Part shown: positions 17,481 through 52,219 of the stretch, piece by piece
Layout of the letters: the number at the start of each line of letters is the position of its first letter
Position numbering within the stretch: position 1 is the first letter of the stretch
Source of the DNA: Stylophora pistillata
Lineage: Eukaryota
Length of the DNA: 64,000 nucleotides
NCBI RefSeq assembly: GCF_002571385.2
Contig: NW_019217842.1
Span: 517,064-581,063 of the forward strand
Reading direction: 5' to 3'
Program-made: the position numbers and the translations under genes
The notes under the pieces: generated by a model
The model's database searches: none
What the model was told of the DNA's origin: nothing
The model's input: only the letters and a program-made list of their open reading frames with translations

Positions 17481-18758
17481 CTAGTTGTCCAGAACGTTCA
17501 GGGACCATGGTATGTTCTTCTTACGCAGCTCCTCAACAAAGAAACGGGAAAATTTGATGGCTTCTGTTTCTGTTATGTTTCCCTTTGTGTTGTCTTGAGG
17601 CATCCACGCGCCAAGGTAAGTCAGCAGGCCAGTCTTCTTCGAGAACGTCGTTGCATAGCTGATTGCTTCTTCGACATTTGCTTGGCCTCCAGATTTACCA
17701 TCTCCACTCCAGAACTTCTGGGAATCCTTCACTTTGTTGGGCCCTGAAGCATAAAGATGCCATTCAGCCATCATGTACGGATCATTTTTATAAATTTCAG
17801 GATCGATATCAGGTAAATCCTTGGCAGTTTTTCCTGGCGACGCCAGAATTAATATTCGCTTAGCGTTTTTGCCACCCGTACCTCGGATTGCTTTTGTTAC
17901 ATCTTTTGTCCACTGGTTATATTTGTCTGTTCTTACGCGAAGACTTTCGTCACAACTTTTCCCTTCCTCTTTACAAGTGTCTATTCCAAGTTCTGTAAAG
18001 AGATTAAAACTCAGTCTGTAGTCCCTGTCTTTTAGCTGCTGTGCCACTGCTGTCCACCAGGCAACATAGGCGTCATGGTCCTTCTTTGTAGCGTAGGCTT
18101 CTGCGCGATGGTGAATCCAGGAGATGATTGGAATCACATTGTGTTTCAGGGAATGGTCGACAACGGTCGTCAGAAAGCCAAGAAACCGTTTGAATTTGAC
18201 GGCGGAGTAGTCGTATGAGTAGAGATCTGCTCTACATCGAATTCGTAAGTTACTAAACCCTCTGTCGTGGACGTCTTTAATGTTCTGCTCAGAGTACTTA
18301 TTCATTGGTTTCTCTGTCTTAAACCAGTTTGTGGAAAAACCTGCTCGAATCTGACTTTGATACTTTTTAGGCGAAATTGGCCCATCTGCCAAAAAAATTT
18401 TCGTAAACATTAGAATTAAATAGAAATTGTAGTTTTCTTGTCTTTGTTTTTTCACTTGCGCATCAGTTTATTTTATTGCATGCTCGAGTATGCACACAAT
18501 ATCATTTCTTTTTAAAGAAACTGCTTCTATTTTCTCTTTCTAGCGGAAGTAAACCCTGATTCTCGCTTATACAAGTCAGATTGTGGACAATGCAAACGGA
18601 TTGAACCAAGTTTTTTTTTGTTTTGTTTCTCGATAAAACCACATTTAGTGTAGCCTGAATAACAGAAAGTGGCAAAATCGTTCAGACCCACCTTTTCCAC
18701 CAGCTGCAGACATCATAAACAGCACGGAATACGAAAGCAAAACAAGGAATCGGGACAT
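17481..18758 (-). CDS. GH5-fold secreted glycoside hydrolase-like, copy 3 (most intact; TAG 34 codons before the ancestral stop)
   Basis: Signal exon 18758-18692 (MSRFLVLLSYSVLFMMSAAGGK), phase-1 intron, exon 18385-17481 open through IPWSLNVLDN*. The homologous tail continues in frame to TAA at 17378-17376. Confidence 0.85.
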
Positions 18759-30590: not shown

Positions 30591-31231
30591 ATATGATCTT
30601 CGTAATCGATCTTACTCGAAATATCTGTGTATACTTCTGTGTAACACAACCAGTAACTAAAACTAAAAATCTTGAAGTTTCCTCTATGTTAGACTTGTTT
30701 TAAAATGTTCTCCTTTTTAACTCAACTCAGTAAAACCGTTTCCAAGGAAAAATAGCAGTTAAATAGAACGACAGAAATATTGTTTCCGCAAATCACACAA
30801 AAAAATAGCAAACCCGCATAATACAGCTATACCGCAAAGTTTGCGTGTTTCTTTCGCGGCAATTAAACCTGGGCTTGAGAGGAATTAAAAAACTGGAAAA
30901 ATAGATTGCCTTTAACTTCTTCAAGTGCCACTGGATATGTTTATTGGAAAGTAACGATACAATTGAATAGTCTTTCGAGGCTGATCACAGAAAGAAATCT
31001 AATAAAATCATTTCGTCATACATTTTGCGCTGAAGTCGAATTGGCTCTGATTAATCGCATATTACTGTAATAACACGAATACATTTTTAGGTTTTTATCA
31101 TTTACATATACATACTTTCCACGCCCTCACCAATTATTCGACTGTAAGTTCGAATTAGACCTATAAATTTTTCGTGACGTTCCATTCTAAAAAGACCTTG
31201 AAAATCATCAAATTGAAGTGTACCATAATTT

Positions 31232-33222
31232 CTAAGCAAAACTTGGTACAATAGCTTCAATGAAGATAAAAAAGAAGACGATGCTAACTCCGAGGAAAAT
31301 GGCAAGAAATGCTGAGAACCACGCGTCCTTAGAAGCATCCTGTGCTCTTTTTATGTCGTCTTCTTCGTATCGCAAATTAGTCTGAAAAAAAGAAAGAAAA
31401 CATATGAAATTATTGATCAGATTAAGAAATGATTGTAAGAGATAAACTGAGAAACATTATTTGCAGATTGGTATGCTCATAATTCATAAAAAAGTTCAAT
31501 CCGGCAAAAGACTTAAAATTGTAATTATGAAGTTATCACGCGGGGAACCTGAACATAAACCGATTTGCCAGCGAAACTGACTCGCGATCGTGTATAGTCG
31601 TCGACGCTATTGTCGGTTTCTATAGCTTGAAAAAGACTTTCTGTTGGGAATCCAAAGCAGTTTTCCTCCACGATTTCACCAAAAATTGTCATTCTTAGTT
31701 CCCAAGGACACATCATAATCCTTCCGTTAAATTAATATGATCTTCCTTGTAGAGCCGCAGCTCCAAAACAGGGTAATTAGGATATAAGAAATTGATTCAA
31801 AGGACAACCTAAATCTGTGACCAAGAGAACACTTCTGTCGAAATAATATAACTACCAATTCACTGAGTGGGACTAAAAAACCCATGGCCTGGCATACTGG
31901 AGACCGGCTTAAAACAACAGAGCTGACTCGATAAAAACTTGCTCTGCGTCAGGTGAACTAACGCCTAGTTACGGTTCAACTTACCAAACGTGACATGCAG
32001 ACAGCAAGCACACCAATCAAAGGACAAAAGAATACGGACACCACAGCCAGTATAAAGTGATCTTTCGGAGGTTCCTCTCGGAGTGGTGCATGCTGGAAAA
32101 AAACGGCAATATAAAATTTTAACCAAAACGTTTAACAAAATAAACCTTCTTTGCAATTATGAAATTGGCGTTCTAAAGTTAAATTCGTAAACATCCCTCT
32201 TAATATTAGACTGGCCCTTTAATATTTATTGAATGAGTCCAGCGTTAATCTGAAGGGTTGTACCTTCTGGGCCACACTGCAAGGACAGGCCTCTTAGTCA
32301 TATGATATAAAATATATTTGTGATGGTTTAAAGTTCACCGTTATAAGAATATTATGGAAAATTGTTGAACGAATCACTAATGTTGAATAATACTTACGCG
32401 CCCCATTTGAACAGCAGCAGGTACCTAGACCGTAAAATCTTCGTTAGCAGTGAATAAAAAATAACAATTCATCACGAGCAAAGTTAATCAGATATGTCAG
32501 TGACTGAATAATTATCCCTTCCATTTTTTATTTGAAAACGGGAACTAATGAGCACACACTGATGCTAGTGATAAGCACAGAGAAGAAAAAAGCGAGGCCT
32601 TTCTTGGCTGAGCATTTGTTGTATGGATAAAAAGAATTAATAAAAATCTACTTCATGAACCCGGCGGTAACTATTCAGCTCCTTTATCTTAGAAATAATT
32701 AATACAGTTCTTCTTCGCACCAATTCTCTCACACTCCCTCAGGCAATGGAGATATTTACCTGTTAGATACGGTCANNNNNNNNNNNNNNNNNNNNNNNNN
32801 NNNNNNNNNNNNNNNNNNNNNNNNNNNNNNNNNNNNNNNNNNNNNNNNNNNNNNNNNNNNNNNNNNNNNNNNNNNNNNNNNNNNNNNNNNNNNNNNNNNN
32901 NNNNNNNNNNNNNNNNNNNNNNNNNNNNNNNNNNNNNNNNNNNNNNNNNNNNNNNNNNNNNNNNNNNNNNNNNNNNNNNNNNNNNNNNNNNNNNNNNNNN
33001 NNNNNNNNNNNNNNNNNNGGAGGGGAGGGAGGAGAGAGGAAATAATTAAAGTATCTACTTTTACACCTTGAATTCAATAGGTTGTCAATGATTTTGAACA
33101 ACATTGTAGTTGCCTCAAAATGACGCGGTGACATTTGTTCCTCAACTGCAACAGAATATTGAGTTTAACTGCAAAATGTGACTTACCTGTTCCATTTCCA
33201 GGGCCGTTTCTCCGCTCTGCAT
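31232..33222 (-). CDS. CD225/dispanin (IFITM/PRRT-like) membrane protein A, about 97 aa
   Basis: Exons 33222-33187 (MQSGETALEMEQ), 32092-31985 (HAPLREEPPKDHFILAVVSVFFCPLIGVLAVCMSRL) and 31381-31232 (TNLRYEEDDIKRAQDASKDAWFSAFLAIFLGVSIVFFFIFIEAIVPSFA*). Phase-0 GT-AG introns. The first exon is less certain; the gap at 32776-33018 could hide an exon. Confidence 0.8.
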
Positions 33223-34699
33223 TTTGGATATTAATTAATTCGATTCCTGAAGACAAAAAAGCTATTTATAACTCAATCAGGCAAGTAAACTTTCTTAACT
33301 CCCATTTCGCGGTTTTTTAAACTCTTGGATAGCACATGTGGCAATTCTCAAGGGTACTGAAAGGTTAAATTTAAAAAACACGCCCTTTGGGCTGAAAATC
33401 AGCGTGGGTATTGTTAATCTTACATGTGATTATGCTCTACCACGCCTAGTCCAAAGACATTGCGTTTTACAGTCACGAGAACTTGTAAGCGGGATTGTCT
33501 GGCCTCCCCTGCAGAAAACTGGGCATAAAGATAAAATGAAGTCATACCTAGCTCTGTGTTCAGAAACTTGGCTCATAACTTAGACAAAAATGTTTCGAAC
33601 AAAGCGCCAAACAAAAAAAACCTATAAACGGGGAACTTGATTCGTCTTCCCGTAACACGATGCCAGAATTTTTTAGGCCGATTTCGCGGTTATCTTCGAT
33701 TTGGTGGCATGATGAGATGGCCACTGCTGGTGACAGTAAGAAAGGCTGATAAAAGTATGTTTAGTATTGGAGTTACGATCTATAGATTGAAAAGCGCAAC
33801 AAGGTGCCTCTATACTTAGACAGCCGAGCATGACAGAGGGACAAATAATTCTATTCAAAAAGCGTAAGTCTGAAAATGTTAAACAGAATGCTTAGTTTAT
33901 CAGGCTTCGAGGATTTCAGCGGTGGAAAAATGAATGGGAAAACTATACGTAAACCTTACCGCTAAACAGTTAAATTCACCGGAAAGCTTGTTGTTTACTG
34001 CGCACAATCAAAAAGCATGGAAACCATATGAAAACAATAGCAACAGTTTCACTACATAAAGATGACGAGTTTTTCGTCGCAAACCGGAATAAATTGACAT
34101 CATCAACATCATACCCGTAATCATGCAGAATTTTAAGAAAGATTCAACAAAGTTTACGTGCTTGAGCTATTGTCTCTTAAGACATATGCACAAGTTTTTC
34201 ATTCTTTTTATTTTAACCTCCCTTCCCCTCGTATGAAGGAAAAGAAAAGGTGAACGTAAATTTTCGAAAAACGCCCGCCAGAGTGGAAAGTCGCTTTTCG
34301 TCGCTTACGTGTCGACAGAAAACTTTGAAGACGCAGACGAACACAAACGTATACATGTCATATGTGTGTGGATATTACCTTAGGGTCAATGATTATCAGT
34401 CGACCGAAGGTCTCAATGAATATGTGCAGATGATTATCTAATATGACCGTGGTATGCTATCATATCATATTACTATCTCAGACTATAACTATCGTTCAAT
34501 TTAGTTTCTCTACGTAAACGCCATTGCCAGCCTCTTCATAGCCTTACTTACCGATAGTTATGGCTATTTGGTTTCAAAATCCTTTCAAATCGTTCTCTGA
34601 ACAATCCTTTCTAGTTCGACTTGAATAACTCAGCACTTACTACAGTGTTTAAATAAGCAATTTCCGCGCCTCGCAATCTTTGACTTGAACTAACCTCGA

Positions 34700-34965
34700 A
34701 ATCAACTATGATACTTGTTTGGATTCGTCCCAGACGTTCTTTAAAGGTCGAAATTAAAGTTCTGCAAGTATCTTCTTTAAGCGTTCCAAGTAAATTTCCT
34801 TGGCGGCTAAGGAAATTTACGTTTAGAAGGGAAAAAGCGCGCGAGTGAATTCACGGGTCAGTCTCAGCCACTAAACATGCGTATACTCATGCTTAGTAAA
34901 TAACATTATTCTCGTGCTATAAATATTTCGTCAAAGGTCACGAATTCTCATCACGCATTAGGTTG
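34700..34965. promoter_or_regulatory. Putative bidirectional promoter between CD225 genes A and B
   Basis: TATAAATA at 34918-34925 (+), then donor gtgagt at 34966. Minus-strand donor gtaagt at 34551 and TTTAAAGA near 34745. 12-bp inverted repeat at 34790-34820. Confidence 0.45.
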
Positions 34966-35657
34966 GTGAGTATTTTTCTTGCTCGTCGCGTTTTTTGTTT
35001 TGCACTTCACTCTCTCGGATAGAGAGAGAGAGAAAAAAAACCAAATCCTCCTTGATAAGGCAAGACAGCGAATTGTTGCAAGAGCTGAACAATTTTGATT
35101 GAAGTACAATCCAGTCTCTAGAGCTTTTGTAGTTCAATTATGTAAATATTTACATCCGTTCTTGAATTGTTGAGAGGCGGAGAAAGAGGTATCCAACCGA
35201 GAAACAGATACACTCAGAGAAAAAACTGCTTAAGCGGAGATAAGTTGAAGGTTTTCAACAAAATCTGAGTCAGCTAAACTTCAAGAATATGATAAATTTT
35301 AATGGCGTTGAAGATCTGTGGCCACTTCAACCTTTCTTGAATATTCCACAACTGATGATGGCGTGACAGATGAACTGCCGCAACTTGCGTGCAGCATTCT
35401 TCTTGGTTTCCGAGCACGTTCCTCTTCGGGGTCGAACAAAACGAAATTATTTATGTTAAACAGAACCGTCGGCAGATGGGTCAAAGACAAAGGGATACTC
35501 TAAGGGAAACGAAGCTCGGTTCGGCGAGAAGCACACCCTGTAGGCTCGCTGATCATTTTGCTTACTCTTTTACCATTTCTTTTTGTGTTAGTTCCAAACA
35601 GAAACACATTTGCAATTTTTACTTCACTTTTTTAGATTCGTTCTTCAACTTCCAGCC

Positions 35658-38600
35658 ATGGTAAGTTCTGCTAGTGGTACGGGCTCTGTTCACAACACGA
35701 CCAAACATGAATAAACATACAAATTTGGCCTTAGCTGACGCATGCCCAGTAAGGGTACAACAAATGTCAGTGTTAGTGTTTACGTTTGTGGTTTCACGCT
35801 ATTCGATGTCTACCGCAACAGTTGTAAAATAGACAGCTAATGTAAATATATGGGAAAGCAGCGATTCTCTTACAGTTTCCACGTTATTATTAAAGTCCAT
35901 AACAATTTGAACTAATTTATTATGTATCATGCTCATCTCTTCGTGTCTTGTATTATCATGCAAATATCCTGTATCTCATTAAACGTCTTGGCGCATTCCA
36001 TTCATGCTAATGCCAACACAATCAACCCCGCGCCGCTATTGAGAACGAAGGGTCACGCTCTTGTCTTGTGTGCTTCCTGAAACCGGCTCGATCTTCTCCC
36101 GCCCGTTAAACGGTCACAACAGCAAGGAAAACGTGTTGAAAGGTCTTCCGTAAAGCGTAGAAAGTTTCCCCAGAAGAAGCAAAGTCGTCTGTCTTAAAAG
36201 GTAACCAGTAACATATATATTCGGCCGTAGTAAAACACTCGAACACTCAGTCGACTGCTCGATCATTTTTGGCGATCGTGTAACAACCCTTAACAGACGT
36301 AAATTAGACTCAATTCTGGCGGAGTTGGGCTCCATCAGTTCTTAAAAACACAAAGAAACGTCGCTGACTCCTTTCTTGAGTGCATAAACAGCATTCTTGA
36401 TTGAAGATCAATACACAGTAGTAAAAGAACAGTCGGCATAACCCGCGGGATTCGGTAGATAACGCAATATTTACTACAGACGAATGTGCCAACACTACTT
36501 AAACTTTAAACTCGATTTTGTAGTAAAATGTTATTTACGTCATGTCCATTCCTTCGAGCTGATCACTAGTGGTTTTTTTTACGGCACAAACCTTCCTTAA
36601 GGTGTATTTATATATATCGTGACTTCTTATGCAACCGTTGAGGGAAATTGATCGACGGATTGCAGTTTGAAATACTAATTTCCTTGAAACAGTGTGACAA
36701 ACACAGGAAATTGGGGTGCTCTTGCGTCTAGAAGATTACATACAATCGACTGTCCTAGAATCTTTCGATTGATCTCAGTTTATGGCTAAGGTTTTACTGA
36801 GCATGGCCAAATTGTTTACTTGACTTAGTTTTACCGCCAAGTTCTGCAGTAGTCTGCGTGTTTGATTAATGCCATGAACAGGCGGCCATCAGCTCATGTT
36901 ACTTGTGCATGTGTTGTCGTTCTTCTTCCTTAGCAACTTGAAAGCAGTTATCATGCGGTATCCTCACTTTCTCGTAAACTCTGGAGCATATGATGATAAT
37001 GACTTTTCACTGTAGCGTAGGTTGAAATGTGTTCACTTGATTTCCCCCATTCATTCACCATAACAACAGAAGTAATTGTCAAGATTATGGTCGAATTCCT
37101 AAATGCAATTTTTCAAAACTAACAAACGATGTTCGAGAAAGCTTCCTATAGAAATATTTAACAACATTGCGAACGAAATCTAATCGAGAAGACAAATTAG
37201 TACAGCACAAATTTCGCAACGTGGCAATGAATAGTGAGACAGTATTAATGCTCTCAGGCGTAACACAACGGACCATTGTCTTCGCACTCGTGTTGATATA
37301 GTCCTCCTTTAGAATGAAATTTCACTATTAAAGTTCTTTTTGTGGACTAATGCCCAACTCATTCGCATTTCAAATTGCACATATTCCAAAAGAAGGGAGT
37401 AACACTTTGTGCGATTCACAAGCGCTCTCGTAATTTATACAAATATGATTACTATCTTCCTCTTTGTCTCGACCTCGTGATTGAATGAATTTTACCATAC
37501 TGGTAAAACATCTAGCACGAGGGAGCAAATGAATGAATGAGTATCTGGAGATCGAACCAAATGACAAAATCTAACTTATAAGTCTTCGAAAAGAGATTTG
37601 ATTGCCAATAATATTTTTTATCAATAATAGCGAAAGAGAGAGAGATAGACTCAGCTTATTTCGTTTTCACATATGGTATCTCGCGCTTGAGGTCAAAGTC
37701 CGCCTTTAAAAATGTCACAAATATATCAGTTTAGACGGAAAAAAGGAACAGGCTTAAAGAATGCATCTTGTACGAGAATACAATTGCTACAAAGGAAAAA
37801 AGCTATGCGAGTATACACTTAACTACATATATAAATCAATGAGCCTCTCTTTCATTTTTGATTCAACAGTAGCTGAAAAATGGATCACAGCAGAGTCGAA
37901 GAAGAAGCCGCATACCGGGTAAATGAATTGCTTGGAGAACATAACTAAATTAATTGTTACTGCAAAGAAATCAATGTAAAAATAAGGAAATAGGTAAATA
38001 ATGGTAGCAAAGTTGATCAAGTGTCAGTAAACAAAAGCAATCCAGCATAATAATCAGTTATTATCAAGGATGATTTACAAGGATAATCTATTTCTAATCA
38101 ATAAGGAAAATAAATTTATGCAAATGACCTCATGCGCAGGAATATGTGAGTTACTAAGTCAAAAATAGTTAAAGTGTTGCATCTCATTGGTTGAGAGGAT
38201 AGAGTAGGTTTTCGAGATTTCGTCTCAGAGCTGTGCAAAGCAAAAATATTACAATCAGGCAGTATTTTCGACACTCGATTGAGAAGTGCTCTACTGCATC
38301 GGTCGAACAATGGATCGCAGAATGATATAAGCTTAAGGCTAAATTGTAATTGAGGATTATATCACCTTAATTGGGCTCTGAAATGAAATGGCTCAAAGAT
38401 TCGTCAATTTGAACAAGAAATAAGACTATTTTCTGTCTTTTAACACACAGGAGGCTTGCAAGAAGCTGCTGTTCAATGATGGCACAAGAACTGCTCTTGT
38501 TTTGCTGTCTCTGTTGACCCTTTTCCCCATTGGAATCGTCTCAATTGTTTTCTGGATTTTGGTAAGTCTGAGATATGTTCTCGACCTCGAGCAAAGTAAG

Positions 38601-39599
38601 GGAAGAAGAAATTTGTTTTGCAACTGCACTTCTGCAGGCGGGCATTATTCATTCATTTATTTATCTATTCATCTTTCCCATGCAAATTTTTCCATCTATT
38701 CTGTCCTCCATCGGTGTTTGCTTTTATCCATTATATCTCACCATTACTACAGTTATTAATGCTGTTGTAATGAATATCATAACCATCCAGTTACCTACAT
38801 CTCCATTTTCATTTCCATTATTAATCTCATTACAACGCTAACATTGCTACTATCATTACAATAGTCACTGCCAATACCATACCTCGACCATTACCGTCCT
38901 TACCATTACAATCGTTAATCATTATTGTACCATTACTATTTTATAGTAATTCACTTTTCTTTTATCCATCTATCCATCGACGCATTCAGTCATTGGTTCA
39001 TTCAATCATTCATTCACTTTTTCATGTATTTATTTATTCGTTCGTTTATTTCGTCACTCAGTTAGGAAATCATTTAGCTCCTCGGATAGTACACTCATTT
39101 TAAAATTATTACTTTTTCAAAAAGAAGCCCCATCGTAAGTTTGTACACCGTCGAGGAAAACCCTCTAGAGGGCTGTGTTTAAGCTCCTGGGCCCAGTAGT
39201 TCGAAGGCTGATTAGCACTAACCCAAGGTTAAATTCTAGTCAGGGTTTCTTTAATCCTTTGTTTAAAAGTCTTTTTTTGGATAATATTCCTTACACTTTT
39301 TAGAGCATCCAATCACCAAGTTGTAGACAAAAAGAATTCCACTGAATTTCCTTTTAAAGCTTTCAGATCTGAAATCAGATTTTACATTAACCCTGGGTTA
39401 TCTTAACACAGCTTTGAACAACCCGGCCCTGATCTTCCAATTGCAGGCTCGAAAGGCTGGAGGACACGGTGAGAGGAAGAAGGAAGCTGAGAACTATCAC
39501 GAGGCTGAGACTATGGCACTGACGTCCATTTCATTTGGCTTGTGCACTGTGCTCACTATTCTGATCTGCATTCCTCAATTGAAGAGAGGAGATATTTGA
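35658..39599 (+). CDS. Divergent CD225/dispanin-like membrane protein B, about 88 aa
   Basis: ATG at the end of micro-exon 35636-35660 (gccATG|gtaagt), exon 38451-38561 (EACKKLLFNDGTRTALVLLSLLTLFPIGIVSIVFWIL), exon 39447-39599 (ARKAGGHGERKKEAENYHEAETMALTSISFGLCTVLTILICIPQLKRGDI*). Same phase-0 intron position as genes A and C. Start exon inferred. Confidence 0.68.
39188..39431. mobile_element. MITE with terminal inverted repeats, abutting the last acceptor of CD225 gene B
   Basis: ctgggcccagtagttcgaaggctg...aacccaaggttaa versus ttaaccctgggtt...cagctttgaacaacccggccctg. Confidence 0.7.
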
Positions 39600-42500
39600 T
39601 CAAAATAAGGGCTGGAACATTCTGAGTGTTCACTTCCTTATGGCATTGAGCCAATGACGTATAACATTTATTAGTTTTTCAGTAGTCATATCTTTATGAG
39701 ATCCCCAGTCATAGATGTTATTACTGCAAAATTACGCTGATTTGCTAAGATGGTGAGATAGATGCTAACCCTTTTTTGGTTTGTTTGCCTATTCTTTTTA
39801 TGTTTGTTTCATATAATAAAGTGCTGTTAATTTTCTTCATGTAATAACAGTAATTGTTTACTTTTTGGCATGTTTTATTCGTTCTTGTTGAAAAGGGAAT
39901 GACAGTTTCACTATGACGGATTTCCTTGACATATTGCACTTGTTGCGAGATATTTTAAACCTCGTAAATTAAGCCGAATAATTTTCCAATGATTTAAAAA
40001 TTGATTTACTCCTTAGCATTCATCGTCGGAATTTTACAGGAAGTTAGCTTCATTTGGCAATGGAAATAATTTCCTGAAATAATATAAAGCCTTGTAAACC
40101 TCCAGCGTCGTTCATGGTTTAAAGAGAGACACTTACGTTTTCTCATTAAAAGTAGTTATGGCTTTGTTAAAAATAATTTGTGGGAGGCAAACTGATATGG
40201 TGCGGTTTGGATAAAGGGTTTAAACAGTTTTCTGTTATAATTTTCATCGACTACTTTTGGGATTGACACTTCTTAGACAAATTGGGCAACAAGAATGTAA
40301 CGGAAAGGGGAACGGGAGCGGTCCTGTAAGCTGTTTTGTTTTGTACTGAAGCAAAACGGACAAGATACTGGACAAATCACAAAGGGGCTTACAGCTTGTT
40401 TTGTCAGTTTATCTGCAGATCAGAAAAGGGTTCGTCTTGTTTAGCTTGTGTTATGGGAATTTTACAAATCCCGACACTGGTGTTTATCTCGACTCGCACA
40501 AGAAAGAGATCACGGTTATTTGCTCGCTCGTCCCCTGCTTTTTTGTTCGGCTTTCCTGCTACCCAGGATCTAATGTAAATACTACGGTGAAGCCATTACT
40601 TTCTATGATGAATCCATCTGTCAGAGGTGTTTCAAGCATCTCTTATTGTTCATTGGTGTGATTGTTGGCGAATAGAGCCAAAGAACTAAGAACATTATCG
40701 ATTGTTAGAGAGCCGTATCACGACATCTAGGAATTATCGCTCGGCAGTTTCTAGATGATGAAGACCAAAACTGAAAGTCGCGCAAAAGGAATGTGAAACG
40801 AACTGTTACATGGAAACCTGGAAAACCGGAAGGGAGACGTACCCGAAACACGAACACAAATTTAGTTTTCTTTCCCCTTAAGCTTCTCTTGGGAAACAGA
40901 GAATGATAAAAATGAAAAGTAATTATAACAAAGTGGTTTAGATTACCTTCTCATATTTTTTTTACAATCGTTTTAGCTCATCGGCAGTTTTGACCTAACT
41001 TTCCACCAAATCTCCGACTTGTTTTTTCCAGTAGGTTTAACAGCATACTCCGCTGGCATATTTGCTTCTATTCTCGGGAATGGTGAAGCTTTCGCTAGAA
41101 TTTCCAAGAATCAGCTGAGACAATATTTCTCATATTTCAAATAATAAATAAAATTCATTTCTTGACATTCTAATGCAAAGCTCATGATAGTTATTCCGTG
41201 CTTCAGTCAATTTCATTAAATCTTTTAACCATTGCAGTTTTGTTAATCCAAGATGACTAAGAGAGTAAATCGTTTATTCAACAATTTATGGAAAAGGAAG
41301 AACCTTTTAATCGAACGGCCATCGTTTGATATATCAGTCTGAAATGTTAGAAAAAAATAAGCATTGATAGCGACTGAACTTGCGTTGACACAATACAGGG
41401 TTTACAATGTAAATGATATAATCACTGGTCGTAGAAACGCTTGACTGCGTCCTAAAGCAAGTTGGCACAGAAACCCCTAAAATGCCTTTATAATCACTCC
41501 ACAAAAAAATGCCAAGAGTAGTTACGTCAGTGTTTTCAAAAACCTCTGTTTTCCTAATTTCGCTCCGTCCACACTTCATAGCCGAAGCTTTCAATTTTTA
41601 TCTTGGTTTGAAGAGCGTTTCAGAAAATGCACCGTTTAAGCAACTATGTTTGGGATTTTGACGGAACGTTTCTAATATAACTGTCTTTTAAAATACCTTC
41701 AAACCATGATGTGTGTTTTCTAAATATGCCTACTGTTCGCCTTCTCGACTACCTAACAAAGATTACAATTCGCTATTGTTCTTGGGACAAACTGACCCTC
41801 ACAGGGAAAAGTACTTAAGCGATTGTTCAAAAAACAAAATCTTTGAAAAAAAATTGGCTCTCACAAGACTTATGCCTGGCCCTATCCTGATTTCCTTTGG
41901 ACGTTGCTAACGAACAGGGAGGGAGCATAGCGCTCACGTGATGATCTCACTCGTGAGTCTGTTGTTCATGGAGTTCGTTCCTCGGTTGTTATGGAAATTA
42001 GTTACCTATTTTCTTGGAAAAGTAAAGGAATTAAACTATGAAAAATGAACATCATCATCCACAGTGATCTTACGTAGCTCAGTATTACATTATCTTTGCG
42101 CATAGCGATGTCAACAACAGTTAACAGGCTAAAGGGAGAAACTTATAAGAAATTAACATGTTATTTTCATCTTTAATGATTCCTTTCAGATAAAGATACA
42201 TGTACCACCTTTTCTTCTGGTCAGAGTGGTAAGACCAAATAAAACAAGAATTTTAATTTTACGACGTAAACACAACGTTACAATTCTTGTCTTCTCGCGC
42301 AAGCAGTCTTGGGTATAGCGGTACAACAGTTGCGATGGCCAGCGGCCGCTTCACCGCGACTGTTTCAATGGAAAATGGGAAATTAAAGCAAAAGCACGGA
42401 AATTTGTTTTCCAAGAAGAGAAATATTCTTACTTCGCCTAGGTTTGAACCTTTGCCTTCCAGATATCGTTAATAGGAAATATGCTGCAAAGTGAAAACAT

Positions 42501-44759
42501 CATTTCCTATATTTTCCACGGAAATGATTAATACCTCTTTTCTTTGTTTGGTTGATCTTAGCCAATTCAGCTTTAGATAATTTGATTTTTGTCTTCATCC
42601 TTTGCTACATATACATCTATAGATGTTAATTACCATTTCCACATTCGATAATAACGACTAGTATGATACCGATGTGTGATACTCATGGTATTTACATGGT
42701 TCTCGTCACTTTTGTCAATCAATCGGACCGTGAGCGTAAGATTTCTTCAAGGCTCTAATCGCTTTTGGCCATAAGTCGTTCGGTCGATTCTACATTATAA
42801 CGAAAACTAAAGTGAAGAGTGTCGCATCGATTAAATCCAAGAGTGCTGATAATCGATATCGTGCAGGGTGGAGAACATTGCTGATAGCCGGATATTTCAA
42901 ATCACAGAAAAATAAGTAAAAACTCTTCGTCGAGTTTGAATTAAGGACGGAATGAAAATTTCAGTTGAAAATACGGAAGACAGATTTGATCACAAAAGTA
43001 AGAGCGGATAGCTAATACAACATCTTATTATAATCAGTCTCCTCGCCTTCCATTGTTTGAGAATGATATATATCATAAGAGAGTCGTACAGGGGTAAACC
43101 AACGATAACTGAAAGCAAATTTAACCATTTTGCGATGTTTGAGTCCCTCAGCGTTTTCTGGTGATCCCCTCTCCTCTATGAGTCATTAACCTGAAAAATG
43201 ACTTCAAGAAACATAACCAGGGGTCATGATAAAGTTTTCTTTAAGTTGGAATTCAGTTTATAGGGAGTTATCCATCAGAGAAATTTTCACCCCCCCCCAG
43301 GTCTCTATTCCTCTCAATTTCGTCCCCAGGTCTCTTAGTATCAGCCTTGTTCCCCGCTTCTTTTGCACTCAATCTTAGGGGATGAAGGGGGAGAGACTGT
43401 AGGAACCACGAGGATAAAAAGGGGCGTTATTGAGATTTCTGTTTGTCGCCCTGACTGCCCAAACTGACTTGCCGAACCCAAGTTAAAATCTTTTCTTGAC
43501 GAACTTACTGGCCGGTTCTCTTCGGAAACGAAAATATCGAATGAATATCTTTACCCTTGTAGATAAAAAATGTACCTATCATTGCAGAATGAGCATGAAA
43601 ATAGTTACCTGGAAAGAGAAGAACAAAGCAATTATGCCAAAAGGCAAAGTGAAGAAGATTGCAGAAATAATTGACTTATTTCTCAGGGTGAAGAATGAGT
43701 TCTATTCCTATTTGAATTTGCACTGACTTGAAGAATCTAGTCCAGTTTCATCCATATTGTTTGGGAGAGTACCGTTTGCCTTTCTGCAAGAAAAGAACTC
43801 AAACCTTAATCAAACAGTTCATTTACTATAAAAGATTAAAAAACCCTTCTTTTCATAAAAATTAAAAACAGAAAATTGCCGATCGAGTTTGTGCCACCTT
43901 AAGGAAGCGGTGAGGGAGGTGGACTGTGGACTCCTGATTGGTCAGAAGTACCCTCCCCTCCTTAGTCACCTCTGCCAAACTCACCAAAGCAGACTTTTAG
44001 GTGTGCTTAAGCTTGAAATTGTGAGGAAACTTGATAAAGTTGCTCAAAATTTCGTAATTTTTTTTACCCATTTCTTGATGATTCTTAAATTTGACATTGT
44101 AGTTTATATATTTTATATCTTATGTAGGGAGTGTTCTCGATAGGGATAAACTCCGACGTTTCCTTTTATGTACGCTCACATAATAAATTGATCAGTCGAT
44201 TTGATTTGATTTACTGAAACTAGGTACGTATGTAATATATTGGAAAGAGAGTTCTATTGTCATTCCCAGTTGAATTCAGATTGCATGTAAAATTGATTGA
44301 ATTACAAAATCATGTCAATTTTCAACATTGAACAGGCTTATGAGGTTTATGAATTATAATCAAGAAGAACGTCATAAAAGTTTAAGACTGCCGCACACTG
44401 TACCTGTTGATTGAGACGCCATAATCTGTGCGAGCTTTTTGCAAATGATTGCTTTCTCAGACCGAACTGATGACCGACCGACCGACAAAAACAGGAATAT
44501 AGGAAAGGAATGAGGTACTTTGGGTCTTGCATGGTTTTGTAGTGGCTGTTCGCGTGTCGTAAAATACATGTCGATCTCTTTGTTAAAAAAAAGTCGTGCG
44601 GAAACGTGGATGCTTGTATTGCTTGTGTCAAGGCTGAAGGAAGTTGAAAGGAACTGAAACATCGCAATACGTTATCCACAACAAAGTTTTTTTAAGTCCC
44701 TTTGAAATAGCACGACAGTCTGGTGTGATTCGGTCGGGCAAGGGTAGACCTGTAACTGT

Positions 44760-45299
44760 GTTTTCCGCGGCAATGATAAGCGTTTCGTTGTTATTAGAGG
44801 AAAGTGTTCGGATTGGACGTCAGTGAAGTCCGGGGTGCCCCAAGGAACAATTCTTGGCACTATTTTGTTTATCATCTACATAAATGACATCTCAACAGAT
44901 TTGACATCTACTGTTAAGATTTATGCAGATGATACTAAAATTTACCGAACAATCAGTTCGCCAGATGTTGATATTCCTGCCCTGCGGAGTGACTTAGATC
45001 GATTGAGTATATGGGCAAATAAATGGCAAATGCACTTCAATCCGGATAAATGCGAGGTCATGCGTATTACACATAGAAAGGATAAAACTAAACCAATTTA
45101 CTCGCTGGGGGGGCAATTTAGGTCGGTAGAGAACACTAAGGACCTAGGAGTAACCATCTCTTCTGACCTGTCCTGGGGCTTGCATGTATCTGCAACGGTA
45201 AACAAGGCAAATATGGTACTAGGTATCATAAAGCGGTCCATCGGAACTAATAGCCAGTACGTGTTTTCGCAGCTCTATAAATCACTGGTCAGGCCCATA
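44760..45299 (+). mobile_element. CR1/L2-clade LINE reverse transcriptase fragment
   Basis: VKSGVPQGTILGTILFIIYINDI...YADDTKIY...WQMHFNPDKC...KDLGV...LYKSLVRP, running into an N-gap. Confidence 0.9.
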
Positions 45300-46049
45300 N
45301 NNNNNNNNNNNNNNNNNNNNNNNNNNNNNNNNNNNNNNNNNNNNNNNNNNNNNNNNNNNNNNNNNNNNNNNNNNNNNNNNNNNNNNNNNNNNNNNNNNNN
45401 NNNNNNNNNNNNNNNNNNNNNNNNNNNNNNNNNNNNNNNNNNNNNNNNNNNNNNNNNNNNNNNNNGCATGTCACTCTCAGAACTCAAGTCATTTACGCAT
45501 GCTGGGAAGGAAAAAAAACATCCCTCTGAAATGTGGAGTTCTAGACTTACCATTTTAAGATGAGCACGTTCAAATATTCACGGAATATAGATGTCTATGC
45601 AAAACGTTTTCATCTCCAATGGAACTTGTCCACTTATTCTGAATATTGCTTAGTCATTCACGCAATCAGTTCTTGCTCGGATAATTTTGAAGTGCCTTGT
45701 CCTACCTACATTTACTTGTAAACGCACAAATATTTACCGATGGTTCTGCGAACATTTTAAACTATACTCAGTGCTCTTGTTAGTTTCCATCTTCAGGCAA
45801 AGTAAACGTTGTTATAAAGATGATAAGTTTCTAAAGAAACAGCGGTGCTGCGTCGGTAAAAAAAACAAGACTACTTTATTTAAACTCGGATGAAAATGAG
45901 GCTCGTTAGGCCTCTAGCAATAGAGATGCTAATATACCGAGGAAAAATTTATGAATATAAAATACAGAGTTTAAAAATAATATAAGCCTAAATATAAATG
46001 ATGATATAAAATTACAAATTACTTAGTTTTCTTATCTAATTCCTGAAGG

Positions 46050-46228
46050 TAATTTTGGTTATGATCAACTGAGTTGATAATTTAAATTGGCCACCGTAAA
46101 GAGAAATGTCATTTCGCCCTGACGAAGGGCTGACGCTCGAAACGCCAGTTTTGAAACTCTTCAAGGTGACCAATTTACATTATAAACTTAGTTTACATTA
46201 TCAACTCAGTGGATAAAACCAAAATTAA
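46050..46228 (+). mobile_element. Penelope pLTR remnant: inverted repeats around hammerhead motif (46116-46149)
   Basis: CTGACGA-agggctgacgctc-GAAA-cgcc flanked by tcaactgagttgataa...aaattggccaccg and its inverted copy. Confidence 0.7.
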
Positions 46229-49200
46229 GTGTTGTTATAGTTCTTATGGGCTGCTGTCCATTCAAAGATATTGATAAAATAGATATTTAAGGATTTAGCT
46301 TTAAACAATATTAAAGTTGCCGAGAAATAATTATGCGAAAAAGAAGAATCACTATTTACCTCAAGGATTAACCAAGACTTAGCGTAGAATTATAGAAGCT
46401 AAACTGATACAACAAAGAAGGCAACCTAAGCTTGTCTTTTAATTTTCTGTCCTTCCGCAATTAAAGGGAGCTAATATTCATAGTCAATAGATTATAATCT
46501 CTTGTTATAATTAAAGGTAATGTGGTTGGTTGAGTCATTTCATTATCATGGTCTTAGGATTAAAAGCGTCGCCGGTGTCTTTAACGCATAGTGTTGGTTT
46601 ATTACTGCATAAAATTTCCAGCAAGCAGACATCGATTTTTTATCTTAATTGTTTCAACTGTTTTTCTATGAAAAATCTCTGGTAGATTATGGTTTACATT
46701 TTCTAGAGCTAGTTTTCATGGCCCTCGAGGTAACAGTTCGACCTCCTAACGTTATCTCCATATCTTTCAGTCCACCAAATACATTTACATTTTTGTGGTA
46801 TTGAAGAGCTAAAATGTTAACGCTATTACAAAACAACCTATGACGGTAATCGCAAATCAAAAATACGCATTTGGCAACAGTCCCGATGCGTTCACCAAAG
46901 GCGGATCTGTTAGAGTTTTAGTGAAACATAGTGTGCGTCGAACTGTTTTGAATAGCTTATTAGCGATACAAAAGCGCTACAGCAGCTGTCCTCTTCCTTC
47001 ATTGTCCTTTGATGCTTTGAAATAAAAGCCAAATCCCCCGGCTATGACGGTCATGGCTGCACTAATTTCAGATACTACAATACCCATGTTACGCTTGGCT
47101 AAGGTCATATCATTACAATTAGGCAGTACATAAGTGTAAACATCTTACTCAGGCTAAGTTCAACAGTTGAGAATATATTCACTTGATTTTTAATTGCATT
47201 GTTTTGTTCTCCCACACACCGGTGGGAGGCAACGTTGTTGACTGCTGACCTGTGAAACAGTTGTATTTTCTTATTCAAGTTTGTCTGGTGCGGCCATTTT
47301 TAATTGATTCAGTTGCATTCTCCTTCAGACGGTTCGTCGAAGAAGTTCGTTGATACTGTCTCATCTGGATCCCGCGGGTTCTGAAAGAATTCAGTATTCT
47401 TAGCCAGATATTTCACTTCCTTCAACAAACCGGTAAGTTTTGTTCTCTAAACCAGATTTCGTACGTCCTAGCAAAATGCTTAAGCGTGTCGATTTTTGTC
47501 GACTATTTAGGCGAAGACCATTTGAAGCGGAAATCATGATTACTAGTTTATTTTCGAAAAGTGTTGCTCATCAATTACGGACTTAGTGCCTATAACTGTC
47601 CATTGAACGAACTCATCTATGCAACTATTGACCGAATTCTTAATTCAAGATCACATGGACATCTTATGACCACAACAGTGAAAAGTAGATTCCTCGTCGC
47701 ATCGTTTCTTTCACTTTCCGGAAGACTATTCAAACTAAATTCAATGATAAGCGAAGAATCGCTGAAAAGTCTATTTGAAATATATTCTATTGGAAGTTTA
47801 TATGAATAGTCCATCTGAAATCAATATAACTCGCCGAGGACTATGTTAGAAGTTTTCACAAATGCTCATGTTTGAGAAATACTCCAAGATTTTGGGTCAA
47901 CTCAGTAGCAGAGGTGGCACTAAAACTTTCCTTGATCATTGAAAAGTCTGTCGGTGTGACACATTTCAAACAGGAAGACTCCCTATTTTTTTAAATAATT
48001 CGCTTTCGGATCTTATCGCAAGAAACGTGAATCCTTGAATGCTAGAAACCCTTGTGTAGATTTGATCTATAATGAATCCATACAAAGGTTGAAATTTTGG
48101 AGCTTAAATCATAACGAAACGCAAAATATGATGATTGTTTTGTTCAAGAGTCCTGGTATTGATTTCTCCCCCTACAAAGCTTCCACTGAGAAACATATCT
48201 TTATCTCCTTTAAAGGTTGTATTGGTCATTCTGACAAATTTTACAAGTTTATGTACGAGGTTCATAATTTAAGCTTGTGTATCTCGTGCCTCTCTGCTTA
48301 GACGGCGTCCGAGATATTTGCAAATTGAGAAGTAGCACTCCTAGCCATGTGCCGGACGGAGCTTTCAGTTGATTTCCGATTGCTTTTGAGCGATATTAAG
48401 ATCAATATAAGAACAAATATCAAGCGCAACCGTAGAGCCAAATGTGTGTAAAAATTATGATAAGCTTTCAGTCTGATTCCCACACATAATTATTAGATGT
48501 TTCACACACAGTGGTAAACGGCAGGTACAATCGTCTCACTACGCGCTAAAAATAAAGTCAGTACCGAAACAATTTAAAAAAAATCCTTGATTCTTTCGCG
48601 ATCGGTCCTTCAGAGCCAGGTGTATTTTTCGGGTTTCAATTTTTCTGGAGGGACGAAAACCTATTGCTTCTCAGTTCGTGATCCTCGTTCGCTCGACCAC
48701 CTTCGACACTGTTTCACTCGGTTGTTTACAAATATCATGATGATCATGATCAAGATGAGCAATACAAGCAAAGGCCCGTAATGTAGCAGATTGCCAGTTC
48801 CTTAACATTTCTTTCGGTAAGTAACGCACTCGCTTAGACTAGTTCTCCCTAGTCGAGGATAACGATTCTGGCTTGTGTAGGACGCTAAAAAACTGTTCGA
48901 AATGCGAAATGCCCATCTGAAAAATATTAGTAATGTGGTCTTCTGCAGCCAATATAGTAACACGTAATGTCGTACACGTCATTTTACAGCATTTTTCGTC
49001 TTACTAAGGACTTTTTAGCTTTAAACACTTATTCAAAATAATCTGAAAAAAACAAAATATAGCTACTGAGGCTGAGAGCTCTCATTTGACCAGCATGATG
49101 CGATGATGCCGGGTTTGGCGATTGAACGCAGATTTAGCTCGTAGGAACGATTAATTATACTTGCTTTACAAGTCATCATGAAATACACTCTCTCAAATAT

Positions 49201-49647
49201 AAAACCAATGCAACATTAAATTCATGGTTTTCTTACGTTTTTATAGCTTTTAGCTGAGCCTAAAAACATTTACTGCCCTTTATGTTGTTGAAATATTCCA
49301 GAGGCTTTTTAAGAGTCGATCAGTACACGACTTAGGAATCTGATCGGTCACGTCTCATAAATCTCAATCACTTCAACAGTTGTTAACCGGCATCTTTTTC
49401 TCACGGCAAGTTTTTGCCGTTCGAGTTGTTCATTGAGCCTCATTCAAATTATTCTTCCTTACGACGAACAGTCCCCCTCAAACACCTATCGACAAATTGC
49501 GGAGACTTGAAAATGAAGGCCTGAAATCGTCGAAAGTAATGGCATAGACAGCCCAAGAAAATAGGGCTGCTTATCATTGATATGCCTGACTGTTCGGTCC
49601 TGTTTACTCAAAGCATGTATACTTTTCCTCTTCAGAATAAAAGGAAC

Positions 49648-50961
49648 ATGGAAAGCAGGGAACAAATAACCCCAGGTGAGACTCACACATAGACTCAATT
49701 ATTGCTCGTAGAACAAGCAACTTCAGCGACTCGTCAAACTGATGGCAACAGTATCAAGGAGGCGGATATGAAATCATGCATGTCGCCACTACCATGATCG
49801 ATCAGCACTTTAAACCTGTGTCAATTGATGGTGAAATGTGGTGTCAAACGGATATCTCAACTTTGCTGATCATATTCAAAACAAAATTTTCGAGGCAGGA
49901 AAAGGTTATCATAAAACTCTTTAAAATTCACTAACGAACCAGCAGTATCTGTGGCGGGGGTAACAGTCATTGTAAAAATTTTTGCAAATTCAATGCGGCT
50001 CTGAGCACTATTAACGGATACGTTCTACTTAGCAGGCATTGTGATGTTCAAATTCAATCGTAACTTTTTAGTATATTTTTAAAACATGCTATTTTCAGAG
50101 AATCCTCCACCCTACACACCACAGGCTCCTGTCACAGCTCAACCACCCAACCAACCGCAACTTGGTGTCTCTGCATTGTCAGGTTACCCAGGACAGCCTG
50201 CTAACCCAACACAGCCTGGTTACCCGGCACAGCCCGGCTACCCAGCCCAGCCTGGTTTCCAAGCACAGCCTGGTTACCCAGCACAGTCCGGGCAGCATCC
50301 TCAGCCTGGGTATTCTCCTCAGTATGGCTACCCACAAACGCAGCAGCCAGGTTATCCTCCCCAACCCACTCAACATGTCCAACAAAGTACCACTGTGGTC
50401 AACATGCAAGCACCTGTAAGTTCCTCACTGACTTTTTATAATTAAAATTCCTTATGGTGAAATCATGAACTCCAGATCCTCCTCGACCAGTTTGGAATGA
50501 ATACGTATGTCTTTAGAGGAAATGGGGTTTTTACACGCAAACTATATATCTATCTATCGAGCAAATGCCATATCATTAATGTTTTGCGCCACAAAAAAAT
50601 TTACCTTCAAGTTGAAGGAAACCATTAGATTTGGAAACTGACAAAGATAAACCAATAAGGGTTTAAAGAGCTAAAGATAAAGAAGACAGATAGGACTCCA
50701 AATAAGCCAACTTGAAAAGGATCAAACCCTGGCGGATCTCCCTGATTAGCTTCTGATTAGCAACAGAGCCAAACTACCAGAACTAAATTTAATCAGTTAG
50801 AAATGCGTAAAGGTTAGAACGTGGAACTCACGTTTAGTGTTTCCGAGTATTCAGATTTTAAGGCAACATGGATGTTTCGGAACGCAAAGAGTTTTTTTTT
50901 TTATCTAGAACCTTTTACTCTGTCAAGGAGCCCAAATATATATGCGTTATCGACCAAGCGT

Positions 50962-50994
<33 letters not shown>

Positions 50995-52219
50995 TTTTTG
51001 CATTTTTATAGACCGAGACGAAGTCGAGGTTCATGAAAACGCAAAAAAAAAAAAAAACAAAGAAAAAAACAAGGATCTTGACCAAACAAGCTTTGTCAGT
51101 AAAGGATTTACTGCATAGCAAAATATTTCGCTTTAATGATTAATGAGAACTGTTTATTTCGAGAGCCGGGAAAGAAAACCAACTGTGTTTGTTACACAGT
51201 GTGCCCAATTTCTTGAAAAAATTTTTCTCTGTTTTGGCTGTCTTCTACCGCTTTTTGCGACTTCGTCGCTGACATGTCCAAAAGTTACGAAGTTTCTAAG
51301 TCAGCTCCACGCACTCTTTCTCTTGCGCGGGAGCAAAACGGAATATCAAAAAGGAATATCTGTAAATAGAAGAATGTATTGAACAGGAAAATACACATTT
51401 CCATTTCTAGACGCGAAGAACGAGCTGTCTTTTCATTTGAAGGATTTATTGATATTCTCTTTCGTTCTCTTTCAAAGGCTCCGACGATCATCATGCCAAT
51501 GGCTCTTCCTCCTCCAAACTGGTTAGGCCTCTCCTTATTCACATGCTTTTGCTGCTTCCCGATTCTTGGAATAGCTGCTATTGTTTTCTCCATCATGGTA
51601 AGAATTTCTTTCATAATAAAATATCCTGAAACAAGTAGCTTTCATTGCGTTCACTCTTTGATTGTTAGGACATCTCTAATTCTAATCGTCCTGCCGTGAA
51701 TAGCTTCTTATGATTTCATTATACAGTTTAATTAAACGATGTACAATAGTTAGAGTCCTGTAGCTGCTATTTCCATAAGAAATCTCGAAGTATAAGCCAT
51801 TCATTTCAGCTGGCAAAATAATATATGAAAGATAATCTCCAAAATCATTTCGCAAAGAATGATTGCTTAGTTAGCCGTATAAATCCTGGGTAAATTCCGA
51901 TTATTTTCAATTGGCGCAATTCTATATCAAATCCCTAGATTATTTTCTTTGACATGACATTTTTGTTGGATAGCTGCACAACAGTTTATTACCAACAAGA
52001 ATTGGAAGTGAGCACTTTATTACGCTATCTAAACTTTGTTTGGCTAATACTCTTACTGATTACTGACTGCTGAATTCTCAGGTGGACAGTTCATATGCAG
52101 CAATGGATTATGACGGCGCTTGGAGGAATTCACAAATCGCCAAGTGGCTGAATATCGTCGGTATCGCCATGGGATGCTTTACGGTCATGCTCGTTATAAT
52201 CTTAACTACGACCGTGTAA
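49648..52219 (+). CDS. Proline-rich CD225/dispanin protein C (PRRT1/IFITM-like), about 200 aa, 4 coding exons
   Basis: Exons 49648-49675, 50099-50415 (ENPPPY, QPGYPA repeats), 51478-51597 (PPPNWLGLSLFTCFCCFPILGIAAIVFSIM) and 52082-52219 (VDSSYAAMDYDGAWRNSQIAKWLNIVGIAMGCFTVMLVIILTTTV*). GT-AG and frame-consistent. Confidence 0.9.

Follow-up and report, generated by a model that had tools for sequence, protein, structure and literature searches.

In Stylophora pistillata, genes A, B and C of contig NW_019217842.1 are real genes and belong to a CD225/dispanin array in which about nine loci stand in tandem over about 70 kb. They were studied in a 64,000-nucleotide stretch of the contig (the window), whose positions are used throughout. 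PF04505 matched 12 times genome-wide, and all 12 matches lie on this contig. A sequence-only reading had described a hidden cluster of three genes at 31232..52219. That interval holds four loci, namely A (minus strand), B (plus strand), C (plus strand) and a decayed gene D, and the whole array holds nine. Nor were the genes hidden, as the spliced products of A and B are letter-identical to the uncharacterized RefSeq proteins LOC111324315 and LOC111324316 of Stylophora, and A is already labelled PF04505. The coral dispanin array is ordinary but undescribed annotation, and CD225 expansions in cnidarians have been published before. The novelty is confined to the subfamily of B, which has no cysteine in its first helix.

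The common traits that had been noted were seen in all three genes: a pair of hydrophobic segments, a P-x(1-2)-G turn (CPLIG in A, FPIG in B and FPILG in C), and a phase-0 GT-AG intron directly behind the first hydrophobic segment. In each protein a charged loop separates the two hydrophobic helices. Their strong sequence divergence was also confirmed, with a pairwise core identity of 16-25%. A and B stand head-to-head, and RNA molecule ends put about 1.2 kb between their starts. The predicted splicing of both held, since in 4 of 4 runs RNA joins every coding intron of the two genes where the models place it. In two raw-read runs the core intron was crossed by 59 and 63 spliced reads for A, and by 218 and 231 for B; the same joints were also found in contigs of two other RNA runs.

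Gene A codes for 106 amino acids, with about 28 residues ahead of the CD225 domain. On the minus strand, its 5′ UTR exon (34695..34887, molecule ends at 34828-34887) is joined (33245/34694) to an exon at 33187..33246 that carries the ATG at 33222 (coding part 33187-33222). A 27-nt coding exon, absent from the previous model, follows at 32398..32424, with RNA joints on both sides in 4/4 runs. The next exon (31985..32092), also seen in RNA, encodes the PPKD motif and the first hydrophobic segment, matches PF04505 positions 1-28 with 24.3 bits, and ends at the family phase-0 intron. The last coding exon (31232..31381; joint 31381/31985 in 4/4 runs) encodes the loop, the second hydrophobic helix and the stop, and matches positions 32-67 with 17.8 bits; the 3′ UTR continues below 31000. 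A possible further exon, reaching into the assembly gap (32777-33018), was discarded, because reads join 32424 straight to 33187. The whole protein scored 49.1 bits on PF04505, above the curated cut-off of 27.1 bits that we took as the threshold of CD225 membership, and the best PDB match of its profile was PRRT1 (E 2.4e-8). The A-X(6)-A motif and the glycine of the second helix are present. The loop reads D-D where the family has G-D, the GxxxG positions are D..R, and the loop arginine that a SNARE-mimicry model requires is missing. The cysteines of the first helix (C44 and C53) are not adjacent, so neither Cys-Cys nor C-F-C is found. Foldseek, queried with a low-confidence AF2 model, gave no match at E ≤ 0.001 among 141, and an Atlas structure search named no family over the bar. 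The most distant homologue found was 61% identical, and a word-limited protein search returned no named Acropora or Porites orthologue. Judged on these sequences, A may evolve faster.

Gene B codes for exactly 100 amino acids, about 24 of them ahead of the first helix. Both A and B had been taken to be under 100 residues with almost no N-terminus, a description that does not fit the spliced products, and A has two extra short coding exons. The 5′ UTR exon of B (36040..36200, plus strand, molecule ends at 36039-36057) is joined (36198/37868) to an exon at 37870..37918 with the ATG at 37880. It is followed by the cysteine-free first hydrophobic segment (38451..38561), which ends at the family phase-0 intron, and by the last coding exon (39447..39599), which encodes R52, G58, the EAExMALTSIxFG motif and the second helix; all three coding exons are supported by RNA, and the 3′ UTR reaches about 40230. 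A candidate start exon (ATG) near 35640-35660 was rejected, since reads begin B at about 36040.

B occurs as one copy in the genome. Its identity is 69-89% in seven named corals and 52% in Nematostella, where the orthologue is LOC116618385; an alignment of 12 sequences has 35 invariant columns, among them the loop arginine. Both of the coding variants checked were synonymous. Because it is single-copy and so well kept across stony corals and to Nematostella, B is old and conserved, and these comparisons place its origin at least as early as the coral-anemone split. The notion of B as a fast-evolving gene was thus not upheld. The Porites homologue is annotated DUF4190, while B itself is annotated as uncharacterized.

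Whether B is a dispanin had to be decided by profile methods. On PF04505 it scored 14.4 bits (E 0.043), below the cut-off, an outcome that the sequence-only reading had itself named as counting against it; six of nine homologues matched at 13.6-16.2 bits and three gave no match, and the Nematostella protein scored 12.6. Scanned exon by exon against Pfam, neither exon matched CD225. A first-exon profile built from eight cluster sequences did not find the first-helix exon of B at E 5, and a last-exon profile from cluster sequences found B only at E 1.2. Furthermore, Cys-Cys, the G-D motif and A-X(6)-A are all wanting: the loop reads G-E, the GxxxG positions are G..K, and the first alanine is replaced by E while the second is kept, as is the helix-2 glycine G81. 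These data could be read as evidence that B is an unrelated two-helix membrane protein, a compositional look-alike that lies in the array by chance. Against this, B aligned with the A profile without gaps over 60 columns (95.8%) with the introns in the same column, and its hhalign score against the cluster profile (42.9) was reached by none of 200 segment-wise shuffles that keep the composition of each segment (maximum 24.1). The sole match of its profile among 177,635 PDB sequences was PRRT1 (E 0.002), a match that does not rank subfamilies because the PDB hits include no other CD225 protein. In 1.84 billion proteins the B profile found 14 matches, the one clear CD225 protein being TMEM233-like (E 5e-4), and in the Atlas 10 of 10 best matches with a family belonged to CD225 or its clan. 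The look-alike reading is therefore scarcely credible, and by these comparisons largely refuted already. The family assignment of the sequence-only reading stands by PF04505 for A and C, and for B as remote homology below the cut-off. Its profile, the register of its intron and its closest matches elsewhere mark B as a remote dispanin, and it is filed as a remote derivative rather than a member because it misses the PF04505 cut-off. For A and B, AF2 gave weak models (pLDDT 60 and 66) with two long helical arms, which contribute no further evidence. An IFITM1-like cluster is among the proteins nearest to B in the ESM Atlas (scores of 0.88-0.89, a lead only).

The splice model of C is a prediction from canonical sites and matching paralogue structure, read confirmation covering A and B only. 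On the plus strand it comprises a predicted first coding exon (49648..49675, with a canonical donor and an open frame), a predicted Pro/Gln/Gly/Tyr-rich exon with a PPPY motif at residues 12-15 (50099..50415), an exon with the first hydrophobic segment and its CFCC cysteines ahead of the phase-0 intron (51478..51597; 34.8 bits on PF04505, above the cut-off), and a last exon with loop, second helix and stop (52082..52219; 25.4 bits). C had been called PRRT1-like, and in predicted architecture it is, with about 125 Pro-rich residues on two extra exons ahead of the CD225 domain; such Pro/Gln-rich exons occur in five cluster genes, C and four others. C has A-X(6)-A, the second-helix glycine and, in CFCC, the cysteine motif. 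Its loop has M-D in place of G-D, M..G at the GxxxG positions, and no arginine. The G-D motif is found in four other cluster genes and in none of A, B and C, and the loop arginine of B recurs in two other genes on the contig and is absent from A and C.

Between B and C lies gene D, a silent C-like pseudogene on the minus strand. Its last exon (42990..43190; local profile E 1.8e-7, PF04505 15.4 bits) has an in-frame stop at codon 5, its first-helix exon (43609..43783; 22.6 bits on the open part) has a frame broken upstream of the helix, and RNA depth was zero in 4 of 4 runs. The young PRRT1-like group consists of C, E, F (whose first-helix exon is missing), G, pseudogene D and a partial copy of G that differs from G by only 2 changes; near-identical and 67%-identical pairs occur among the array paralogues. 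Fast evolution, checked among these young C-like paralogues, was not borne out: dN/dS values among E, F and G were 0.52, 0.32 and 0.28, all below 1, as averages over the sites of 40-70 codons. Comparisons of C with E or G were dropped, as dS was saturated (1.7-2.6) and the ungapped register was off by one residue. A tree of 16 cores, with a single vertebrate sequence and IFITMs absent, settled 6 of its 13 inner branches and left the other 7 open. It does not resolve vertebrate affinity or the deep branches that join A, B and C, and so does not show the three to be one recent expansion; the proposed expansion stands as a series of tandem genes that are gained and lost, documented by paralogues and a pseudogene.

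The affinity to IFITM proteins was analyzed at the level of motifs. We take the G of the G-D motif to be G91 of IFITM3, and IFITM3 carries a PPxY motif, as does C. The GxxxG of IFITM3 is G91-G95 (PMC7665892). With the register fixed by the intron position and the PRRT1 alignment, GxxxG is broken in A, B and C and intact in G and H only. No N-terminal YxxPhi was found in A or B, and C has one in the loop only. Most C-type members have 3-5 cysteines in the first segment. For an amphipathic helix ahead of the cysteine pair, peak 10-residue moments, computed without an IFITM3 control, were 0.36 in A, 0.32 in C and 0.42-0.56 in the N-terminal part of B. A splice site in the loop that separates the two helices is conserved across dispanins (PMC3282796); A, B and C have it in phase 0, read-confirmed in A and B, and because it is family-wide the shared intron is uninformative on IFITM affinity. 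The array thus resembles IFITM1-3 (dispanin subfamily A) in that A and B are small, in its tandem arrangement and in the family splice site. It differs in that GxxxG, Cys-Cys and YxxPhi are missing from both A and B, and in that B, a single-copy gene, is conserved and does not evolve fast; together with the paralogue dN/dS values, these differences tell against the IFITM-like label.

Other dispanins also offer comparisons. PRRT1/SynDIG4 (subfamily D) shares the CD225 domain, the long Pro-rich N-terminus of C and four cluster genes, and the best PDB matches of the A and B profiles, whereas the N-termini of A and B are short and the first helix of B has no cysteine. The TMEM233/PRRT2/TUSC5 group (subfamily B) contains the one clear CD225 match of the gene B profile and has the loop arginine, but gene B is about 20% identical to it in the core and its tree placement has no support. 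In PMC3282796, subfamily B is reported as tetrapod-only, invertebrate dispanins are placed nearer to subfamilies C and D than to the IFITM subfamily, and 12 dispanins are counted in amphioxus and 9 in sea urchin. CD225 counts in PMC7642931 are 19-21 in Hydra, 9 in Clytia, 7 in Nematostella and 7 in Acropora digitifera. The Stylophora array is of similar size; the passages on these published repertoires give counts, with no coral tandem array or sub-threshold B family.

By analogy, we consider it somewhat probable that the array products are small proteins lodged in membranes that regulate vesicle traffic or act as auxiliary subunits, and not induced antiviral effectors. They would then regulate traffic or serve other membrane proteins in the manner of PRRT1, PRRT2 and TMEM233. 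Family knowledge suggests that the first segment is intramembrane, that a helix in the cytosol would contact SNAREs or a client protein, and that the C-terminal helix spans the membrane. On this reading the array comprises two layers, one of old, deeply diverged and stable subfamilies (B, with A as a separate lineage), and a younger PRRT1-like group in which genes are duplicated and lost while purifying selection acts. In C-type proteins the cysteine cluster would be palmitoylated and turnover would proceed via the PPxY tail. Because the loop arginine, the first glycine and the invariant EAExMALTSIxFG surface are kept, B likely serves one fixed, conserved partner throughout Hexacorallia.

An immune role, in which products of the array, above all those of A and the young C-like paralogues, would make membranes stiffer and keep viruses or microbes from entering, with IFITM-like action in proteins that are not orthologues, appears unlikely. 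Recent tandem duplicates with a pseudogene, the IFITM size of A and B, the GxxxG of G and H and the cysteine-rich first segments of most C-type members fit it. Moreover, mycobacterial CD225 proteins confer moderate influenza resistance on human cells (PMC4488726), and a PF04505 gene was differentially expressed in wounded Calliactis (PMC5288695). On the other side stand the missing motifs of A and B, the conservation of single-copy B and the paralogue dN/dS below 1. A promoter motif scan of A/B and C gave nothing above chance: none of the 11 window matches to GAAANNGAAA and none of the 18 NF-kB-like matches lies between the A and B starts, and one of each, about chance level, lies upstream of C. 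The labels CD225, IFITM, PRRT1 and dispanin are absent from annotated Nematostella poly(I:C) DEG tables, a weak, annotation-dependent result; accession and family-label searches of supplement files from PMC12530282, PMC13319465 and PMC8476169 yielded no CD225-type label, though other large tables or unannotated gene models could hide one.

Distinctly more doubtful is the idea that at least one member resides in the membrane of the phagosome or symbiosome, where it limits lysosome fusion by SNARE mimicry. CD225 proteins bind endosomal SNAREs via a loop arginine, the R-SNARE-like central arginine being R85 in IFITM3 (PMC12478428); B retains this arginine, which is not specific to IFITMs, in 12 of 12 sequences, and in Hydra viridissima that carries symbionts, expression of a PRRT1-like CD225 gene is raised 6.1-6.7-fold (PMC6019070). 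B has a clear orthologue in Nematostella, which lacks algal symbionts (PMC4476465). Because the Hydra (21 symbiotic versus 19 non-symbiotic), Nematostella and Acropora digitifera (7 each) counts in PMC7642931 do not differ accordingly, CD225 copy number does not follow symbiosis. It is very unlikely that all of the following hold together: that B founds an unrecognised Hexacorallia-wide dispanin subfamily, that it acts as a SNARE decoy whose loop arginine restrains phagosome-lysosome fusion and that corals use for the symbiosome, and that an ancient array keeps nearly the whole dispanin repertoire together in a single chromosomal stretch.

The useful result is B, a 100-residue protein that Pfam does not count and that published Pfam-based cnidarian CD225 counts would omit. 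Its Nematostella orthologue, LOC116618385, makes an ancestral dispanin job testable in a genetic model, and B lets one ask whether the CD225 fold is functional without first-helix palmitoylation or GxxxG. If any member proved to be virus-induced or symbiosome-bound, the importance of the cluster would climb sharply.

The three CD225/dispanin-type genes A (-), B (+) and C (+), located in window 31232..52219, were read as open reading frames with canonical splice sites, and their exon borders were fixed. The coding exons of gene A lie at 33187-33222, 32398-32424, 31985-32092 and 31232-31381 on the minus strand (106 aa), those of gene B at 37880-37918, 38451-38561 and 39447-39599 on the plus strand (100 aa), and those predicted for gene C at 49648-49675, 50099-50415, 51478-51597 and 52082-52219, also on the plus strand (200 aa). 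All three carry a phase-0 intron directly 3′ of the first hydrophobic segment. Spliced A and B match, letter for letter, the uncharacterized Stylophora pistillata database proteins LOC111324315 and LOC111324316, respectively. Alignment of four RNA runs (three studies) over window 31000-45290 showed every coding intron of A and B joined in all four, which confirms the splicing proposed for these two genes. In the two raw-read RNA runs, the joint between the core exons (the first-helix exon, and the last exon with the loop and second helix) had 59 and 63 supporting reads in A, and 218 and 231 in B. The last exon of B was found in 20/24 listed sequencing runs (10 recorded as RNA). A and B lie head-to-head and start near 34860 and 36040, respectively; a short RNA contig between these starts (34928-35151, two runs) was joined to neither gene. 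In the last intron of B there is a repeat element (~39189-39432), both ends of which are overrun by reads and contigs of other copies, and a minor alternative acceptor at ~39412 (4 reads, one run).

Against PF04505, the Pfam CD225 domain (curated cut-off, 27.1 bits), whole protein A scored 49.1 bits and B 14.4 bits. In an exon-by-exon scan, both core exons matched in A and in C and neither did in B, so that the family assignment of the sequence-only reading stood for A and C but not, by this test, for B. Homologues of B scored 13.6-16.2 bits in 6/9 cases, and did not match in the other three. The B and A profiles, however, aligned ungapped over 60 columns (95.8%), with their introns sharing one column. 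B scored 42.9 against a profile of seven cluster cores, and none of 200 shuffles keeping the per-segment composition exceeded 24.1. In a PDB search with the B profile (177,635 sequences) PRRT1 was the sole match (E 0.002), and R52 and G58 of B fell on the loop Arg and the G-D glycine of PRRT1. The same profile gave 14 matches at E ≤ 0.001 among 1.84 billion proteins. Seven were examined: six were B-family proteins or pieces, and one was a mammalian TMEM233-like protein that scores 71.7 bits on PF04505; two long multi-stretch records are among the seven left out. The ESM Atlas neighbours of B, below the 0.9 bar, also point to the dispanin family. From the profile alignment, the shuffle test and the PRRT1 and profile-search matches we infer that B is a remote dispanin. 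Judged by sequence, A and C are CD225 members, and B, which falls short of the cut-off and lacks three of the motifs, is a remote derivative.

The genes had been described as a cluster of three; A, B and C are indeed present, but the array is larger. A survey of 664 kb of the window's contig placed nine loci (A, B, D, C, E, F, G, H and I) at 548-619 kb, and of 23 candidates scored in a PF04505 search of the whole genome at least 12 matched, every one on this contig. E lies at 581k, F (only a last exon visible, with adjoining assembly gaps) at 589k, G at 594k, H at 603k and I at 618k, and a further gene at 395k. A partial copy of G, 97-99% identical to its 5′ part (591144-594300) and without the last exon, is found 260 kb away at 852020-854166, and is either a recent partial duplicate or a misplaced allele. 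Both core exons are intact in 7/9 array loci. Locus D (window ~42990-43780, minus strand), between B and C, has a frame broken upstream of the first helix, and its last exon soon meets a stop codon. Both of its open pieces match PF04505 weakly (22.6 and 15.4 bits), and none of the four RNA runs shows depth over it; hence, D is a C-group pseudogene. Pro/Gln/Gly/Tyr-rich N-terminal exons occur in five genes (395k, C, E, G and I). Core identity is 50-67% within C/E/G, 49% between 395k and I, and 16-36% for all other pairs. In the literature collection searched, none of the papers listed deals with this array or with the B family. The text available from PMC3282796 describes a loop splice site common to nearly all eukaryotic dispanins, gives dispanin gene counts of 12 (amphioxus), 9 (sea urchin) and 4 (Nematostella), and places invertebrate dispanins closer to subfamilies C and D than to IFITMs. 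Counts of CD225 genes in the accessible part of PMC7642931 are 21 and 19 for two Hydra species, 9 for Clytia, and 7 each for Nematostella and A. digitifera.

B is single-copy in the Stylophora genome, with identities of 88-89% in Pocillopora, 82% in Oculina, 69-74% in Porites/Acropora/Montipora and 52% in Nematostella; 35 columns are invariant in an alignment of 12 sequences, and the two coding variants that the reads show are both synonymous. Locus numbers in two Pocillopora species (P. damicornis and P. verrucosa) likewise make A and B neighbours. The P. damicornis counterpart of A has 85% identity and one other record 61%; word-limited searches found no further homologue. Comparisons among E, F and G gave dN/dS values of 0.52 over 70 codons, and of 0.32 and 0.28 over 40 codons each. 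The A and B groups each sit on a long, well-supported stem in a tree of 16 cores, with the deep forks open. Taken together, these results indicate that A, B and C resemble each other so little because they diverged long ago, most plainly in the case of B; rapid evolution is not supported. Recent gene turnover is limited to the PRRT1-like group. Several B-type models of Porites harrisoni and P. lobata (P0039-P0042), some of them truncated, are nearly identical and carry adjacent accession numbers, and B is possibly duplicated locally in Porites.

Elsewhere in the window, a tandem of three glycosyl hydrolase family 5 genes (PF00150, Cellulase), apparently poor in introns and possibly of bacterial origin, lies at 8770-9837 (+), ~14437-15497 (+) and 17484-18467 (-), with 54.9, 39.7 and 20 bits; two of the three are frame-broken. 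A nicotinic-receptor-like Cys-loop ligand-gated ion channel gene (PF02931/PF02932; ~21090-29200, minus strand) lies directly downstream of gene A, a matter of proximity only. A long run of EGF-like repeats in large exons, with an assembly gap inside (1912-5094, minus strand), is by its pattern presumably calcium-binding, and we take a GIY-YIG domain fragment (12376-13086, +) to be a likely Penelope-like retroelement remnant. Reverse-transcriptase-like retroelement fragments were recognized by eye at 44748-45299 and 11058-11802 (both +), the former attracting RNA reads of other copies.

IFITM3 activity needs GxxxG, an amphipathic helix, a palmitoylated Cys and a loop Arg, according to the text available from PMC7665892 and PMC12478428. 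Compared in intron register with the loop R/G/G of IFITM3, A carries none of the three, B only R and the first G, and C only the second G; GxxxG is kept in array genes G and H. In the first helix, A has unpaired Cys residues, B none and C the motif CFCC. A sequence scan of A and B found neither YxxPhi nor PPxY; C carries PPPY. For A and B the proposed IFITM likeness is not supported, and none of the three genes is classed as an IFITM. An IFITM-like defence role appears unlikely. Mycobacterial CD225 proteins have moderate antiviral activity (PMC4488726, in part). A scan with consensus patterns revealed no ISRE-like or NF-kB-like motif between the starts of A and B. A term search of the annotated poly(I:C) DEG sheets of PMC8476169 (1,478 and 527 rows) returned no CD225, IFITM, PRRT1 or dispanin label, and the "interferon" entries listed from its supplement (23/28) are all IRF, STING, MDA5 or PRKRA. 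Nothing matched in the supplements searched for PMC12530282 and PMC13319465, larger tables possibly lying outside the search. Symbiosome control is more doubtful still. In symbiotic Hydra a PRRT1-like CD225 gene is raised 6.1-6.7-fold (PMC6019070, in part). One PF04505 gene is among those differentially expressed upon wounding in the accessible part of PMC5288695.

We lean slightly towards A, B and C being membrane-embedded trafficking regulators or auxiliary subunits. PRRT1 is reported to be an auxiliary subunit of the AMPA receptor. If A, B and C act in trafficking or as such subunits, the C group may be regulated by palmitoylation and through PPxY, after PRRT1-type proteins, and B would likely engage one fixed partner via its invariant loop helix.
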